DNA from: Escherichia coli
Lineage (GTDB): Bacteria; Pseudomonadota; Gammaproteobacteria; Enterobacterales; Enterobacteriaceae
Length of the DNA: 64,000 nucleotides
Assembly (NCBI RefSeq): GCF_029227855.1
Contig: NZ_CP074356.1
Direction: 5' to 3' (one strand)
Shown here: piece after piece, positions 3,536-49,733 of the stretch
Numbering within the stretch: the first letter of the stretch is position 1
How the letters are laid out: each line of letters begins with the position of its first letter
Notes under the pieces: generated by a model
Seen by the model: the letters and a program-made list of their open reading frames with translations, nothing else
What the model was told of the DNA's origin: nothing
Database searches by the model: none
Made by a program: the position numbers and the translations under genes

Positions 3536-7243
<3,708 letters not shown>

Positions 7244-10753: not shown

Positions 10754-11698
10754 TTATTTATACAGATCTGCGCTGACGGTCAGGTTATTACCACGTTCCT
10801 GCCACTGGCGGGTGATGTGGTAATACTTAGCACCTTTCTTCGCGGCACGTTTCGCAACCTGATAGGAGACTTCGGTCATGTTGCCGTAGTTGCCAGAGAA
10901 TTTGATGCTGTCGAACGGGACCATCATCGCTGCGGTCGCTTTGTTCAGTTCTTCGACTTTAGTGCCATCCGGGAGCGTGACGGTGTAACGCCCGCCTTTT
11001 GATGACTGGGTTTCAAAGAAGCGACCGACTTCAGAACTTGGTGATGCGGTAGTCGCAACACCCGGGATCTCAACTTTCTTCGCGGCTTCGCCACCGGCAG
11101 CCAGAGCTGCACGTCCTGCTTCGGAATCTGCCGGGATCACATCCGGGCTCTGGACGATACGTTTCTTAGCATCTTTTTTATAGATGAATGCAGTAATACG
11201 CTGGTTGCCGCCCTGGTTGGAATCGATTTGACGAACGATGTAGAAAGAGTAGGCACCTTTCGCTTTTGCCGCTTTGGTGATGGCATCATTGACTTCTGGC
11301 TGGCTACGATAAAAGCCCTGGACGGTGACCGTGTCAAACGGTTCAATCAGAACGGCCTGATCTTTCGGCAGTTCGACAACTCCGTTAATTACGCGATTAC
11401 TTGTTTCTTCTGCTTTTTCAGCATCGGCTTTATAGAGGTCAGCGACCACACGCCAGTTACCGCTGTTACCAAAATCAGAAGTGTCGACAACATAAAAAGA
11501 GGCGGCACCTTCTTTATCTGCGCGACGAGAAACGGCTTTCACCGCTTCGCCAATAGCATTAAAACGACCGGTAACCACTACACGGTCAAAAGGTTTAACC
11601 GCTGCCGCTTGCTCCGGTGTCAGTTCTGTTGCTGCGTTAACGGAGAATGCCGTAGCAGAAAGCAGTGCCGACGCCAGGAGGGTGTTCTTAAGCTTCAT
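10754..11698 (-). CDS. ydgH: periplasmic DUF1471-repeat protein YdgH (314 aa)
   Basis: ORF track 314 aa with signal peptide; three internally repeated ~90-aa modules (..PFD.V.V.G.....E...A...A.A.GA.YY.I...). Confidence 0.92.
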   Translation of the reverse strand: MKLKNTLLASALLSATAFSVNAATELTPEQAAAVKPFDRVVVTGRFNAIGEAVKAVSRRADKEGAASFYVVDTSDFGNSGNWRVVADLYKADAEKAEETSNRVINGVVELPKDQAVLIEPFDTVTVQGFYRSQPEVNDAITKAAKAKGAYSFYIVRQIDSNQGGNQRITAFIYKKDAKKRIVQSPDVIPADSEAGRAALAAGGEAAKKVEIPGVATTASPSSEVGRFFETQSSKGGRYTVTLPDGTKVEELNKATAAMMVPFDSIKFSGNYGNMTEVSYQVAKRAAKKGAKYYHITRQWQERGNNLTVSADLYK

Positions 11699-41619: not shown

Positions 41620-41811
41620 TTAAAGACCTGCCGGGATTTCGTTATTATCCTGGTGAATAACTTTATCGACAGGGTAACAGTTACCGGGAATTTTCTGTTC
41701 GGTTGCTGCAGTCACACACTCCTGCATTGTCCTGTGAACACTGACTGCAATATCAACTGGTTCTCCGGAAACAAGAAAAACTGTCAGAACAAGTGCAAAT
41801 GCTGTATTCAT
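41620..41811 (-). CDS. ydfD: small membrane-targeted protein YdfD (63 aa)
   Basis: ORF 41620..41865 (-); start at ATG 41809-41811 (MNTAFALVLTVFLVSGEPVD...); overlaps the dicB stop (ATGA). Confidence 0.8.
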   Translation of the reverse strand: MNTAFALVLTVFLVSGEPVDIAVSVHRTMQECVTAATEQKIPGNCYPVDKVIHQDNNEIPAGL

Positions 41812-41996
41812 TGCCAGCATCCTTTTTGTATCGGACGTAAACGGGCCAGCATTGAAAGAATGCATACTTTATTTAATAGCTCCCGTTCTTGTTTTCTCTT
41901 GTTAATGGCATCTTCAGTAAATACTGGGTTACTGATAGTGACACCAATTTCAAAACAACCTTCAGACGTATTAACGTTTGGTAATAACGTTTTCAT
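41808..41996 (-). CDS. dicB: cell-division inhibitor DicB (62 aa)
   Basis: ORF 41808..42101 (-); start at ATG 41994-41996 preceded by GAGGA; MKTLLPNVNTSEGCFEIGVTISNPVFTEDAINKRKQERELLNKVCILSMLARL... recognised as DicB. Confidence 0.88.
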   Translation of the reverse strand: MKTLLPNVNTSEGCFEIGVTISNPVFTEDAINKRKQERELLNKVCILSMLARLRPIQKGCWQ

Positions 41997-42165: not shown

Positions 42166-42223
42166 AAAAACGGCGGCAGAGCAGTCACGGAGTAAAACTG
42201 ATACCGCTAAACGTCACCAGAAA
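42166..42223 (-). ncRNA. dicF: DicF small RNA
   Basis: Reverse complement reads TTTCTGGTGACGTTTAGCGGTATCAGTTTTACTCCGTGACTGCTCTGCCGCCGTTTTT, matching the DicF sequence I recall, including terminator stem and U-tail; lies between the ydfC-like ORF and dicB. Confidence 0.85.
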
Positions 42224-42482: not shown

Positions 42483-43058
42483 TTAAGGATTCATTAAGCA
42501 ATGTCGCAACCACCAATAAATCCGCTTAAGAACATGAAAATTGATTACTGGTATAAAGCGCTTACAGTTGTTGGCGCTGCGTTGTTTGTCTTTAATGGAA
42601 CGTCTTTTTTTGACAGATATCCCGTTGTTCCATTGGGTTTTTTGTCCTCCGGCATCTTTTTTATTGGTTTGGGGGAGTGGATTAATCACCCTCTCAAAGT
42701 GAGATTTATTGGTCCTGGAGTTTGGACTCGTGGATATAATCGTTCTTCGTGCGCACTCGGTATCATCTTCGACATACTTGGTTGTTTCCTGATTGTTACA
42801 GGAGTCGTCAAGTTCTTCTGATGTAAAACCGCAAATGGGGCACGTAACGGGAATTTTGAAAAGCGTTTCTCCGGGTTCCAGAACAAAATTTTCTGCGGTC
42901 TGATTTTGCTTCTCATATTTGTGCTCCGCGTCATTGTGAGAGCACATTCTTATTCTGAGTGCCTGTTTAAACTCACTGAAGCTGAGAGCTTCTTCGCCTT
43001 CGGCAAGACCTTCGAAGTATTCTTCGTAAGCCTTTTCCATGATTGTGTCGAAATCCAT
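42483..43058 (-). CDS. ydfB-like ORF, extended (191 aa from MDFDTIMEK...)
   Basis: ATG at 43056-43058, 1 nt after the ydfA stop; N-terminal ~90 aa protein-like (acidic helix, CPICGF); C-terminal half K/R/N-rich and is the codon-for-codon complement of a membrane-protein-like ORF on the plus strand. Confidence 0.4.
   Translation of the reverse strand: MDFDTIMEKAYEEYFEGLAEGEEALSFSEFKQALRIRMCSHNDAEHKYEKQNQTAENFVLEPGETLFKIPVTCPICGFTSEELDDSCNNQETTKYVEDDTECARRTIISTSPNSRTNKSHFERVINPLPQTNKKDAGGQKTQWNNGISVKKRRSIKDKQRSANNCKRFIPVINFHVLKRIYWWLRHCLMNP
42501..42821 (+). CDS. possible antisense 3-TM membrane protein (106 aa)
   Basis: ORF track 106 aa; three hydrophobic segments (ALTVVGAALFVF, VVPLGFLSSGIFFIGLG, CALGIIFDILGCFLIVTGVV); T-rich second codon positions; AAGGA 11 nt upstream of the ATG. 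Shares triplet register with the minus-strand ORF, so only one of the two is likely real. Confidence 0.35.
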   Translation: MSQPPINPLKNMKIDYWYKALTVVGAALFVFNGTSFFDRYPVVPLGFLSSGIFFIGLGEWINHPLKVRFIGPGVWTRGYNRSSCALGIIFDILGCFLIVTGVVKFF

Positions 43059-43059
43059 A

Positions 43060-43215
43060 TCACTCACCTGAGTTTCTTTCCAGCCAGCGACGGGCACCAT
43101 TTTCGGTTTTAAACGTTTTGCTTTTGGTATATGTCATCGCGGTGAACGTACCGTCCTGGTTGGGGAACACGCCACATACCAGAGATTCGCTGTTGCCAAG
43201 ATCGATAGTATCCAT
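43060..43215 (-). CDS. ydfA: DUF1391 small protein YdfA (51 aa)
   Basis: ORF 43060..43269 (-); start at ATG 43213-43215 with GAGG SD; MDTIDLGNSESLVCGVFPNQDGTFTAMTYTKSKTFKTENGARRWLERNSGE. Confidence 0.85.
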   Translation of the reverse strand: MDTIDLGNSESLVCGVFPNQDGTFTAMTYTKSKTFKTENGARRWLERNSGE

Positions 43216-43329
43216 GCTGACCTCATTTCCCCTTAACGCCGGGGTCGCGGAACTGTTTGCTGAGAACACCGTGCGGTGTCTTGATGGAAAGTAATTTAGA
43301 ATAACCTAACACGAGAGGCAAGTGTTTTT

Positions 43330-43347
43330 TGTTAGATTGATCTAACA
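43330..43347. promoter_or_regulatory. perfect palindrome TGTTAGA-N4-TCTAACA, candidate DicA operator at the dicB-operon promoter
   Basis: tgttagattgatctaaca between dicA 3' end and ydfA; same half-sites as the palindrome in the dicA-dicC intergenic region. Confidence 0.5.
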
Positions 43348-43383
43348 AAAAGAGTGGGCGCAACTAATCACTTGAAAAGAATG

Positions 43384-43791
43384 TTATTTTATTGATTTAT
43401 TTTTACGCGCTTTAAGCATTTCTTCGAAGAGTTTGTTGAAGTTTTCTACTCTTGCGCGCATTTCAGACAGCAAGGCTTCCTGCTCGGAAGATGGAAGAGC
43501 ATCGAATAATTCGATCAATTCTTTGTGGTTGGGAGTTAGCTCTGTTTCCACATGAAGTTCTTGTGCAGGCACTGGTGCCTTGTCTTCGTCACCAAACATT
43601 AGCCATGTAGGTGAGCACTTCAGAGCATCCGCTAAAGCAAACAATCGTTTTCCGACTGGCTGGGTTTCGTCTCTTTCCCATTGTGAAATTGTGACGTGAG
43701 CAACTCCAGCGAGGCGCGCAGCTTCTCGTTGTGTTAAGCGTAATTCTTTTCGTCGCGCCAGAACTCGCTGGCCTAGGGTTCTTGTATCCAT
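43384..43791 (-). CDS. dicA: HTH (XRE/CI-like) repressor DicA (135 aa)
   Basis: ORF track 135 aa MDTRTLGQRVLARRKELRLTQREAARLAGVAHVTISQWERDETQP... Confidence 0.9.
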   Translation of the reverse strand: MDTRTLGQRVLARRKELRLTQREAARLAGVAHVTISQWERDETQPVGKRLFALADALKCSPTWLMFGDEDKAPVPAQELHVETELTPNHKELIELFDALPSSEQEALLSEMRARVENFNKLFEEMLKARKNKSIK

Positions 43792-43840
43792 AGTTAGGTA
43801 ATTCTAATTTTTCTTGACTTAGGTATCCCGCGCACAATAA

Positions 43841-43858
43841 TGTTAGAAAAGTCTAACA
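43841..43858. promoter_or_regulatory. perfect palindrome TGTTAGA-N4-TCTAACA in the dicA/dicC divergent promoter region (candidate operator)
   Basis: tgttagaaaagtctaaca, 13 bp upstream of the dicC start. Confidence 0.55.
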
Positions 43859-43871
43859 AGAGGGGGCTTTG

Positions 43872-44099
43872 ATGCTTAAAGTTGACGCAATTACTTTTTT
43901 TGGCAGCAAAACAAAGCTTGCCAATGCCGCAGGAGTGAGACTGGCAAGTGTTGCTGCTTGGGGGATACTGGTTCCTGAAGGTCGCGCGATGCGTCTACAG
44001 GAGGCATCTGGCGGGGAGCTTCAGTATGATCCCAAAGTTTATGACGAATATCGTAAGACGAAGCGGGCGGGGCGGTTGAACAATGAAAATCACTCCTGA
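43872..44099 (+). CDS. dicC: Cro-like regulator DicC (75-76 aa)
   Basis: ORF 43869..44099; ATG at 43872 preceded by AGGGGG; MLKVDAITFFGSKTKLANAAGVRLASVAAWGIL... Confidence 0.88.
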   Translation: MLKVDAITFFGSKTKLANAAGVRLASVAAWGILVPEGRAMRLQEASGGELQYDPKVYDEYRKTKRAGRLNNENHS

Positions 44100-46587: not shown

Positions 46588-47184
46588 ATGGTTGGTGTTA
46601 CTCAAAGGTCAGGGAATTACTCACGTAATGTGCAGGTGGTTGTCGATTCTAACTCTGTTGATATTATAAAGTCTCCATCGATTTTTATGGATCTTGTTGG
46701 TATTTTAGTTGATTCGAATGTTATTGATCCTCGTACAAACAATGACTACGAGCCATATGATATTGAGAATAAAATAGACTTCAATGATGTTATAAAACAT
46801 AGAGAACGTATTGAAGGGTTCTATCTATATTCTTCGATGATAGATAAAGCGTATGAAACATTAAATGAAAGTATGCCTACTGCTAAGGAAACGGCACTGA
46901 AAAGCATCAATTCACGATATCTTGATTGTCAAGGAGATTTATTGCTTAAACATAGAGAAGCGTATAAGAGCTGCAAGGATGCTCAGGAACGGAATAATTT
47001 AAAGATTCAATTGGTAAGAGAGTTTGCAGATTGGATAATAGACAGTGTAATAGAGCACATCATTAAGAAATGCTTAAATTCTCTTATGGCAATGAATTAC
47101 ACAAGCGAAGAAATCGAATGCCATGCTTCTTTTATCGTTTATCATGCATTCGTAGAGTGTAAGATTCTGGAAAAACCAATATGA
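46588..47184 (+). CDS. hypothetical protein (198 aa), second gene of the AT-rich cassette
   Basis: ATG 46588 with GAGG SD; stop overlaps the next start (ATGA); no motif I recognise. Confidence 0.65.
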   Translation: MVGVTQRSGNYSRNVQVVVDSNSVDIIKSPSIFMDLVGILVDSNVIDPRTNNDYEPYDIENKIDFNDVIKHRERIEGFYLYSSMIDKAYETLNESMPTAKETALKSINSRYLDCQGDLLLKHREAYKSCKDAQERNNLKIQLVREFADWIIDSVIEHIIKKCLNSLMAMNYTSEEIECHASFIVYHAFVECKILEKPI

Positions 47185-47417
47185 TTATCTCTGATGTAAC
47201 AAAACCAAGCCAAACCTTGTATTACCTGGGAGCTCGGTTATTAGAATGCATGAGTTCAAATGCTTATTCGTATGTTGATATTATAGACTTGTATAATGAA
47301 TTCAAATCTAAAAATAACAACTCTTCATTCACGCAATATATTTACACTTTAAATTGGCTATATTTATTAGGCCTGGTTGATGCTAACGAAAATGGAGATT
47401 TGATATTATGTTTTTGA
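47181..47417 (+). CDS. hypothetical small protein (78 aa), third gene of the AT-rich cassette
   Basis: ATG 47181 overlapping the upstream stop; 3' end overlaps the ATPase start by 10 nt. Confidence 0.6.
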   Translation: MIISDVTKPSQTLYYLGARLLECMSSNAYSYVDIIDLYNEFKSKNNNSSFTQYIYTLNWLYLLGLVDANENGDLILCF

Positions 47418-49132
47418 AACGGCTAATAGTCAGTTCTTTCAGGCTTGGAGTGATTCGTGATATCGAATTTCACATTGGCGTTAATTTGATTATTGACCGA
47501 AACACCTCCAGCAAAGAGCAAACTGGAAATGGTGTGGGAAAAACTACTGTATTAAGAGCTTTAGATTTTTGTTTTGGAGCAGAACAACTGAATTTTTATA
47601 CCGATCCTGAATTCAAGAAAGAAAATTCGGTTATAAAAAATTATTTGATAGAGAACGAGATTGAGTTTTGTTTAATTCTCACAAAAGATTTGAATAATAA
47701 AACTGCACCAGTAATAAAAATTAAGCGTAAAATTACATCTGAGACTAATAAAACGAAGGTTATAGCCTCAATAAATGAAGAGTCCTATACGAAGGCTAAA
47801 GATTTCAACGAGGCTTTAAAAAGAACATTATATCTTGATTCCGCGATAAAACCGACCATACGAGAGATTATGGGACGTGTTATTCGAAATACGCATGACA
47901 AGATGTCGAACGCATTAAAAACGATAAAAATGGGTTCTAATACACAATATGAAACGTTAAATCTGTTTATGTTTGGGTTCGGTAACTCACAGATTCTGGA
48001 TGAAAAACAGTCAGTGACTAAAGCCTATAAACTGGCGAAATCCGATTATGAAGTAATTACTCGCCATCGCTCAAAGAATGCTTTGGAACAAGCTATTGCA
48101 ATTATAAATAGAGATATTATAGCACAAGAAGAGTTAATTTCTAATTTTCAAGTGGCAGACTCTTATAATGATATGCTTGCTGAGTTAAATGAGTTAAAAA
48201 TTAAAATTAGTGAAGTTTCTATCACACTATCATCTTTGGAGTTTAAGCAAAAATTAAACGATAAGGCTATACTAGATCTGGAAAAAAGTCATGAAAATAT
48301 AAATACACTAGATCTACAGAAGTTGTACTTAGAAGCAACTGATCGGTTAGGTAACTTAAACAAAGAGTTTACTGAGCTACTTTCGTTTCATAATAAAATG
48401 CTTGTAAAAAAAGCTGAGTTTATTAGAAAACAAATGCAGCCAGTGCTGCAAGAAATTTCCAAATATAAAGATGAACTAAATAATTTATTGACTCAAGAAT
48501 CAGAGCTTTTAAAGAGTTTGTCTTCGCATGGGACATTGGCAGACCTGCAAATAATGCAAAAAAAATTAAATTCATTATTTGAAGAAAAAGGTGGGCTTGA
48601 AGCTGGACTACTTCAAATCCAAGAGATGGAGAACAACTTTAATATACTGAAAGCAAAGTTTAATGATGTGTCAGATAGATTAAAATCTAAACTTGACGAT
48701 TTTAACAAACGTCTTGCGCTATTCAATTCCTATTTTTCTTTATATACTAAAAAATTATATCAGGATGAATATATTCTTTCCTATAAAGATTCCTCCGGTT
48801 CTTTCGTTTTTACCATTGAACCTTTAGGAACTTTGCTCACATCAGGTAATCAGGGAGAAGGAAAAAAGAAAGCCCAGGTTGCCTCTTTAGATTTTGCCTA
48901 TTTATCTGTCCAGGAGTCTTTAGAAGCCAGAACACCACGTTTTATAGCTCATGATGGAATTGAGGCAATTCATGTAAATCAAATAAATAAGTTATTCGAG
49001 ATAGCTTCGGGGATTAATGGTCAATATATATTGGCTATTCTTAAAGACAAGTTGGAGAATATTGATCAAGACTTCATCAATAATAGTGTTGTGCTTGAGC
49101 TTGGGGAGGACGATAAGTTTTTTAGGCTTTAA
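47408..49132 (+). CDS. SMC/Rad50/ABC-type coiled-coil ATPase (574 aa), fourth gene of the AT-rich cassette
   Basis: N-terminal P-loop TGNGVGKTTVLRALDFCFG (RecF/SMC-type Walker A); ~300-aa heptad-rich central region; C-terminal TSGNQGEG (signature-like) followed by RFIAHDGIEAIH (Walker-B/D-loop-like); GGAG SD. Confidence 0.8.
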   Translation: MFLKRLIVSSFRLGVIRDIEFHIGVNLIIDRNTSSKEQTGNGVGKTTVLRALDFCFGAEQLNFYTDPEFKKENSVIKNYLIENEIEFCLILTKDLNNKTAPVIKIKRKITSETNKTKVIASINEESYTKAKDFNEALKRTLYLDSAIKPTIREIMGRVIRNTHDKMSNALKTIKMGSNTQYETLNLFMFGFGNSQILDEKQSVTKAYKLAKSDYEVITRHRSKNALEQAIAIINRDIIAQEELISNFQVADSYNDMLAELNELKIKISEVSITLSSLEFKQKLNDKAILDLEKSHENINTLDLQKLYLEATDRLGNLNKEFTELLSFHNKMLVKKAEFIRKQMQPVLQEISKYKDELNNLLTQESELLKSLSSHGTLADLQIMQKKLNSLFEEKGGLEAGLLQIQEMENNFNILKAKFNDVSDRLKSKLDDFNKRLALFNSYFSLYTKKLYQDEYILSYKDSSGSFVFTIEPLGTLLTSGNQGEGKKKAQVASLDFAYLSVQESLEARTPRFIAHDGIEAIHVNQINKLFEIASGINGQYILAILKDKLENIDQDFINNSVVLELGEDDKFFRL

Positions 49133-49366: not shown

Positions 49367-49577
49367 TTTCATATTGGCGAGATAACGGGAGTTAAGTAGA
49401 ATGCCTGCGGGTGCTTGAGGCTATCTGCCTCGGGCATGAACACCAACGGCAGATAGAGAAAAGCCCCAGTTAACATTACGCGTCCTGCAAGACGCTTAAC
49501 ATTAATCTGAGGCCAATTTCATGCTAGACACATGTAGGTTAGCCTCTTACGTGCCGAAAGGCAAGGAGAAGCAGGCT

Positions 49578-49733
49578 ATGAAGCAGCAAAAGGCGATGTT
49601 AATCGCCCTGATCGTCATCTGTTTAACCGTCATAGTGACGGCACTGGTAACGAGGAAAGACCTCTGCGAGGTACGAATCCGAACCGGCCAGACGGAGGTC
49701 GCTGTCTTCACAGCTTACGAACCTGAGGAGTAA
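49578..49733 (+). CDS. hokD: Hok/Gef-family membrane toxin HokD (51 aa)
   Basis: ATG 49578 preceded by AAGGAGAAG; MKQQKAMLIALIVICLTVIVTALVTRKDLCEVRIRTGQTEVAVFTAYEPEE; ORF track shows an in-frame upstream extension from 49521. Confidence 0.86.
   Translation: MKQQKAMLIALIVICLTVIVTALVTRKDLCEVRIRTGQTEVAVFTAYEPEE

Follow-up and report, generated by a model that had tools for sequence, protein, structure and literature searches.

Two inverted repeats with identical arms, TGTTAGA-N4-TCTAACA, stand on either side of the repressor gene of a lambdoid prophage in the 64-kb stretch of DNA analyzed here (the window). We assign a probability of about 0.85 to the reading that both are strong operators of the CI-like, DicA-family immunity repressor encoded between them. 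The copy at 43841–43858 would silence dicC, and the copy at 43330–43347 would act as the distal member of a distal/proximal pair that silences the dicB operon. This assignment draws on the observed sequences and positions of the sites, on their conservation among related loci, and on their co-variation with the repressor; binding of the two sites by the repressor of this allele is what these features predict.

Results

The 1.5 kb around the sites are 100% identical to the chromosome of Escherichia coli 19A14, in which the locus lies in a lambdoid prophage beside rspAB, the site occupied by Qin in K-12. The annotated genes of the prophage include an integrase, an excisionase, an exonuclease, replication genes, and a Q antiterminator (RefSeq). 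Synteny with Qin extends over dicC, dicA, ydfA, ydfB, DicF, and dicB at the rspAB site (RefSeq annotation; DicF by Rfam). These features identify the locus as the immunity region of a lambdoid prophage of the Qin type, with a DicA-family allele other than that of K-12. The repressor gene (43384–43791, minus strand; WP_000381212.1) encodes a protein of 135 aa that is 57% identical to K-12 DicA over 132 of its 135 residues (E = 4e-55). A preliminary description of this DNA had called the gene dicA, a name that is right for the family but not for the K-12 gene itself. The N-terminal domain of the repressor matches the P22 C2 structures 1ADR and 2R1J (phmmer against the PDB, E = 1.3e-18), and HTH_3 is its only Pfam match; a peptidase or RecA-cleavage domain for LexA-like self-cleavage was not found in the 135-aa protein by Pfam, in which helix-turn-helix families alone match. 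Homology to DicA is full-length, covering the helix-turn-helix as well as the DicA-specific C-terminal half, and the C-terminal motifs LPxSE and NFNxLFEE are invariant across the DicA family.

The neighboring genes had been named correctly as dicC and ydfA. The dicC-like cro gene (43872–44099, plus strand; Pfam P22_Cro) has a product 86% identical to K-12 DicC, and a YdaT-family gene lies on the plus strand at the dicC side (Pfam). The leftward operon, on the minus strand, has ydfA as its first gene (43060–43215; RefSeq annotation and Pfam DUF1391, E = 9e-28) and includes the small RNA DicF (42171–42222; Rfam RF00039, 64.8 bits) and the cell-division inhibitor gene dicB (41808–41996; RefSeq annotation mapped from positions 6909–7097 of record L001).

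Both 18-mers were found exactly where they had been placed before, and the motif occurs nowhere else in the window, compared with a chance expectation of 0.0003 for 14 specified bases in 64 kb, calculated from base composition. The window holds ten perfect 7-N4-7 inverted repeats in total, among which only the flagged pair has arms in common, and none of 60 windows simulated with a first-order Markov model contained an arm-sharing pair. That the repeats arose by chance or composition in AT-rich intergenic DNA, or serve a host nucleoid protein such as H-NS, IHF, or Fis, therefore has a negligible likelihood. The two regions are indeed AT-rich, and Cnu-H-NS, Fis, and Hfq have been implicated in regulation of the dic locus by published work, but the base-specific conservation, the free center, and the co-variation with a phage repressor described below do not fit a host protein. 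Inspection of the sequence also gave no match to the IHF consensus WATCAANNNNTTR.

The repeats had been introduced as perfect 18-bp palindromes. The 7-bp inverted arms bear this out, but the central 4 bp, TTGA in the 43330 copy and AAAG in the 43841 copy, are not self-complementary, and for this reason we describe the sites as inverted repeats with 7-bp arms. The 43330 copy (TGTTAGATTGATCTAACA) is also longer than the 18 bp given for it: symmetry runs from 43326 to 43351, with perfect 12-bp arms at 43326–43337 and 43340–43351. This extended repeat lies 33 nt past the dicA stop codon, and its RNA folds as an 11-bp hairpin (−10.2 kcal/mol, z = −5.6), as a transcription terminator of dicA might. 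We discarded this very improbable reading: the stem is A/U-rich rather than G+C-rich, with U5 before and A6 after it and no 3′ U-tract on either strand, and a terminator scan returns nothing at 43326–43351. Moreover, the same motif is present at the dicC promoter, a place where a terminator would not be expected, and alleles that do have a GC-rich terminator after dicA carry the operator as well. Clear GC-rich intrinsic terminators between dicA and the distal operator were seen in many DicA-family alleles (L097, L141, and others). In the window allele, the scan detects no intrinsic terminator between dicA and the dicB-operon promoter (43348–43384), so transcripts of dicA could continue into the dicB promoter region.

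The 43841 copy (TGTTAGAAAAGTCTAACA), an exact match to the motif, is a predicted Oc-type operator. It starts on the last base of the −10 element of a strong σ70-like dicC promoter (predicted; TTGACT, 16-bp spacer, AATAAT; 43814–43841, plus strand; 10 of 12 consensus positions matched) and spans the expected transcription start. The predicted dicB-operon promoter, dicBp (43293–43321, minus strand), was read from the sequence as a −35 element TTGCCT at 43321–43316, a 17-bp spacer, and a −10 element TAAATT at 43298–43293. It scores under the threshold of the promoter scan; its TTG and TAA are conserved at identical spacing in 36 unique related sequences. The elements assigned to dicBp and to dicAp are predictions at the level of the consensus. 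From them, transcription would be expected to begin close to 43285–43286 at dicBp and close to 43794 at dicAp. The 43330 copy, the predicted distal operator of dicBp, lies 8 bp upstream of the predicted −35 element. Thus, the earlier placement of the sites at both promoters holds for the 43841 copy, whereas the 43330 copy is upstream of the −35 element of dicBp and not in the core promoter.

The pair is real but not complete, as two weaker sites had been missed. The proximal site ATTTAGAATAACCTAACA (43294–43311) spans the spacer and −10 element of dicBp and has three mismatches to the perfect sites. An Oa-like site AGTTAGGTAATTCTAATT (43792–43809) lies directly against the dicA ATG; in inverted orientation, it shows 89% similarity to the proximal site. 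There are four sites in all, two per promoter region. With respect to the core promoters, Oc abuts the −10 element AATAAT, the proximal site holds the predicted −10 element TAAATT, and the distal copy lies outside. The right half of the proximal site reads CTAAAT where the perfect sites read CTAACA, a change that creates a usable TAAATT and thereby accounts for the imperfection of promoter-embedded copies. Within the Oa-like site is a −10-like hexamer, TAGAAT (43801–43806, minus strand), 9 nt from the dicA ATG, and transcription from it would give dicA a leader of about 3 nt.

The half-sites can be compared with a characterized operator. K-12 Oc, TTGTTAGTCATAACTAACAA (TTGTTAG-N6-CTAACAA), is bound by DicA in vivo and mediates DicA-dependent repression (PMC3441716), and its half-sites can also be read directly from the K-12 locus in our set (L002). 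The preliminary description had recommended comparison with the published DicA operator and had regarded DicA binding mapped to different sequences as incompatible with its proposal; because both flagged sites carry the half-sites of K-12 Oc, no such conflict arises. A single A-to-C change in Oc (CTAACAA to CTCACAA) abolishes DicA binding, the start of the K-12 dicC promoter was confirmed by 5′ RACE with Oc overlapping its −10 element, and dicA expression is stimulated by Oc-bound DicA (PMC3441716). Two other predicted K-12 sites, Om and Oa, showed no DicA binding in the in vivo assay of Yun et al. (PMC3441716), so the weak sites, taken by themselves, may not be sites for DicA. For the leftward promoter, a dicBp-lacZ fusion away from the prophage was repressed 22-fold by DicA, and three operators at each of dicCp and dicBp had been predicted in 1988 (PMC10448788). 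Reg-Seq recovered a DicA repressor site at dicC, and the location of DicA at dicB was stated there as unknown (PMC7567609).

About 150 related loci were gathered from IMG/VR together with K-12, phage PPompW, Cronobacter phage phiES15, and a "Rac" record. Of these, the 73 distinct loci encoding a repressor with the recognition helix xHVxxSQWE form the comparison set, and the four-site layout is common to them. Spacing is tightly kept, with 49–51 bp from Oc to Oa among the 73 loci and 34–37 bp, mostly 36 bp, from the distal to the proximal site in the 72 loci that yielded both. An analysis of identical perfect 5-Ns-5 palindromes common to the upstream and downstream regions of each locus, which 56 of 121 loci passed against 10% in a cross-class control, was too strict to inform; the control was raised by several fine-grained classes that share TGTTAG, and position-anchored site extraction was used instead.

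Among class-1 sites (30 Oc, 42 distal, and 36 proximal unique sequences), TTGTTAG and CTAACA are near-invariant, with free variation at the six central positions and in the flanks. Loci whose repressors are identical still differ at the center of Oc, where ACTTTT, ATATTT, and ATATTC were all seen. Invariant half-sites around a free center are the signature of an operator for a dimeric helix-turn-helix protein that leaves the center uncontacted. Position 7 of the half-site may be A, G, or T, and the conserved unit is therefore TTGTTAG rather than the TGTTAGA of the preliminary description. The TTAG/CTAA core of the proximal site is near-invariant (36 unique sequences) and lies at a fixed distance from the conserved TTG of the −35 element, and a core, TTAGAATWAYCTAA, is conserved in the Oa-like and proximal sites of both specificity classes. 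K-12 (TGTTAGCTATAGCATACA) and L141-type alleles have a degenerate distal site, and thus a perfect distal copy is not needed for repression everywhere.

Related dyad-symmetric sites are thus found at the cro promoter and, on the far side of the repressor gene, at a second promoter, with two convincing sites rather than three in each region. A third operator at the "Om" position between Oc and Oa was considered and rejected: class-1 loci have no conserved TTAG-N6-CTAA there, and the class-2 match TCGTAGAGAAACCTAAGT falls on the −35 element of dicC.

The repressors of the comparison set divide into two specificity classes, and the outer operator bases divide with them. Oc reads TGTTAG...CTAACA, with G at position 2 and C at position 17, in all 54 distinct loci whose repressor has T20/R22/A25, a class of 24 distinct repressor proteins with identity down to 50%. 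In the 19 loci with S20/A22/G25, which represent four repressor proteins, position 2 is C and position 17 is G without exception; here Oc reads CCTTAG...CTAAGG, or TCTTAA...CTAAGA in the variant L062. The left half-sites of both dicBp sites show the same G/C switch as Oc, and at the distal site the base at position 2 agrees with the repressor class in 18 of the 19 A22 loci and at least 43 of the 54 R22 loci. Within the DNA-binding domain, only residues 6, 8, 20, 22, and 25 fully separate the classes. The R22-to-A22 change falls in helix 2 of the repressor, and the recognition helix VAHVTISQWERDE is identical in both classes. The G/C co-variation may represent one or two evolutionary events only, which limits its statistical weight.

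The switch bears on which protein reads the palindromes. In lambdoid switches, repressor and Cro share operators, DicC belongs to the P22_Cro family, and repression of both dicA and dicB by DicC has been published, so the flagged repeats could be primarily sites for DicC rather than for the repressor. We consider this improbable. The change from TG to CC follows the helix-2 residues of DicA, whereas the helix-turn-helix of DicC, GSKTKLANAAGVRLASVAAWG, is identical between the classes (window and L054); class-1 loci with very different DicC proteins (L141 and L148) keep TGTTAG; and binding at K-12 Oc needed dicA. The outer operator bases therefore track the repressor and not Cro, which points to DicA, and not DicC, as the reader of these bases. 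The earlier proposal that a single DicA-type repressor controls both sites gains support from this co-variation and from the identity of the half-sites with those of K-12 Oc. DicC probably does bind some of the four sites, most plausibly through the TTAG-N6-CTAA core shared by the weak ones, but does not determine the specificity of the flagged pair.

More distant repressor classes have different palindromes at the same two positions. A repressor with the recognition helix SSVSVFKWE goes with the operator CTAAC-N4-GTTAG, SHVTIFKWE goes with CTTAAC-N4-KYAAG, and S[HY]VT[VI]YRWE goes with CTTGCA-N4-TGCAAG. The first of these, the phiES15 class (L004 and L086–L101), uses the GTTAG-N6-CTAAC pentamers of the window with each half-site inverted in place, and its operator lies at the same distance from the −35 element as in the window.

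Discussion

The arrangement described here suggests how the switch could operate. A repressor dimer would place one subunit on each TTGTTAG half-site and leave the central bases uncontacted. Bound at 43841–43858, it would cover the −10 element and start of the dicC promoter and block RNA polymerase, keeping the rightward operon off; occlusion of this kind was demonstrated for the K-12 homologue and is expected of the window allele by analogy. By the same analogy, repressor on Oc may also stimulate transcription of dicA. At dicBp, the perfect distal copy (43330–43347) could anchor the repressor, with the −10-embedded proximal site (43294–43311) occluding the promoter. Occupancy of the pair would keep the toxic division inhibitors off, as the leftward promoter beneath it is predicted to drive ydfA, DicF, and dicB. 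The near-constant distance between distal and proximal sites suggests that the two are coupled, and cooperation between them may be envisaged. More speculatively, the distal copy could serve as a roadblock against read-through from dicA. The site at 43792–43809 is likely to be OR3-like, such that DicC or excess DicA would lower dicA expression there. Given that the two specificity classes share the core of the weak sites and that Oa was not bound by K-12 DicA, we hypothesize that DicC prefers the weak sites.

It is possible, though we do not favor it, that the proximal site at 43294–43311 represses the dicB operon by itself and that the distal copy is either dispensable or auxiliary, as an affinity anchor, a block to an UP element, or a roadblock to read-through. 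The TTAG/CTAA core of the proximal site is more uniformly conserved across alleles than the distal site and contains the −10 element, the distal site is degenerate in K-12 and L141-type loci, and other alleles have the terminator between dicA and dicBp that was not detected in this one. However, the 34–37-bp spacing is kept across both specificity classes, and position 2 of the distal site co-varies with the repressor in nearly all A22 loci and in most R22 loci. The retained spacing and this co-variation together argue that the repressor reads the distal site under selection, and the reading we prefer is that both members of the pair act in silencing dicBp.

Among known systems, the switch is closest to DicA/Oc of Qin, with the same gene order, chromosomal site, half-sites (TTGTTAG-N6-CTAACAA), and position of Oc on the dicC −10 element, the same 135-aa repressor architecture, and the same regulated operon of ydfA, DicF, and dicB. 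It differs from Qin in that the repressor is only 57% identical, the central operator bases are different, the distal dicBp site is perfect in the window and degenerate in K-12, and the window prophage is more complete. P22 C2 (PDB 2R1J and 3JXB) has a homologous N-terminal helix-turn-helix and 18-bp operators whose outer bases are conserved and whose central 4 bp are not contacted; in these, positions 2–7 and 12–17 are contacted and positions 8–11 are not (PMC4267663). This geometry is that of 7-N4-7, and the half-sites are related (ATTTAAGA against TTGTTAGA). Unlike C2, DicA-family proteins have no C-terminal RecA-cleavable domain, and each region of the window has two convincing sites, not three. 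K-12 DicA is without the Ala-Gly cleavage site, and Rem has been reported as an antirepressor that relieves it (PMC10448788).

As in λ CI/Cro with OR and OL, the repressor and cro genes of the window form a divergent pair, and operators are present not only at the right (cro) promoter but also at a left one, downstream of the repressor gene. As with λ cI transcribed from PRM, the window repressor gene probably has a very short leader. The protein family and site sequence are different from those of λ, and the sites are spaced by 36 and 49 bp rather than 23–24 bp. The PaaR2/YdaS/YdaT region of CP-933P in E. coli O157:H7 is likewise a lambdoid immunity region of the cryptic kind in which cro is followed by a YdaT gene; 18-bp inverted repeats are present at PR/PRM and again at a PL-like promoter, and the repressor gene is leaderless (PMC8630535). 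The operator consensus of PaaR2 is unrelated (GTTTAGTAA), and in CP-933P a toxin-antitoxin pair comes after the repressor.

Elements of this kind have long been known; for DicA, lambdoid operators of the OR/OL type were predicted in 1986–88, and Oc was validated in 2012. What is added here is small, namely a perfect second copy, a four-site map with promoter-embedded weak sites, predicted sites at K-12 dicBp, and the co-variation of residue and base. The comparison pins down the most likely position of a DicA-type repressor at the dicB-operon promoter, the location called unknown in PMC7567609, and the predicted equivalent K-12 sites are TGTTAGTCATGGCTAATC on the −10 element and TGTTAGCTATAGCATACA upstream. 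The practical gain is modest, and the understanding of such switches is unchanged.

The sites matter in that they would determine immunity specificity in a prophage family that is very common in E. coli and at the same time control the toxic division inhibitors DicB and DicF. Of 5426 complete E. coli genomes, 4055 contain DNA similar to the 1.5-kb region, with as many as eight places per genome, so several DicA-type immunity regions often coexist and could cross-regulate. The comparison also suggests that the window allele and K-12 DicA, although only 57% identical, have the same operator specificity, in which case co-resident prophages could regulate each other. We tentatively propose that there are at least two DicA-family immunity specificities with a common recognition helix and a common Cro, split by helix-2 and N-terminal residues (T20/R22/A25 versus S20/A22/G25) that read position 2 as G or C. 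Each switch might further hold two types of site, repressor-specific palindromes and −10-embedded TTAG-N6-CTAA sites that are preferred by DicC and shared between specificities. If so, prophages without common repressor immunity could still cross-talk through a shared Cro.

Several other features of the prophage were observed. The leader of the dicB-operon transcript (43216–43287, minus strand) is conserved even in the most divergent DicA-family loci (equivalent region of L002–L155). Up to ydfA it consists of CATCAAG, a hairpin CACCG-CA-CGGTG, TCTCAGCAAACAGTTCCGC, and then CCCCGGCGTTAAGGGG. The sequence of the first hairpin differs between alleles with the hairpin retained, and the second element resembles a lambdoid boxB (GCCGGAAAGACGGC) in some alleles. 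The leader matches no Rfam family, and RNAalifold on the conserved leader returns a 4-bp stem only; it may be a nutL-like or processing signal.

Downstream of ydfA, a 191-aa open reading frame (42483–43058, minus strand) has the YdfB sequence at its start and, along its entire length, matches PHROG phrog_35040 (E = 5e-141). Only a truncated "ydfB pseudogene" is annotated at these positions in RefSeq, and a real phage gene has therefore probably been mis-annotated. Antisense to it, a hydrophobic 106-aa open reading frame (42501–42821, plus strand), which has neither an annotation nor a PHROG match, is probably spurious. Between the replication genes and hokD, at about 46588–49132 (positions 11689–14233 of L001), are genes annotated as an ABC-three-component system and DUF2326, which are candidate anti-phage defense cargo. 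Beside hokD, a sok antitoxin RNA (49409–49583, plus strand; Rfam RF01794, 115 bits) completes an intact hok/sok module.
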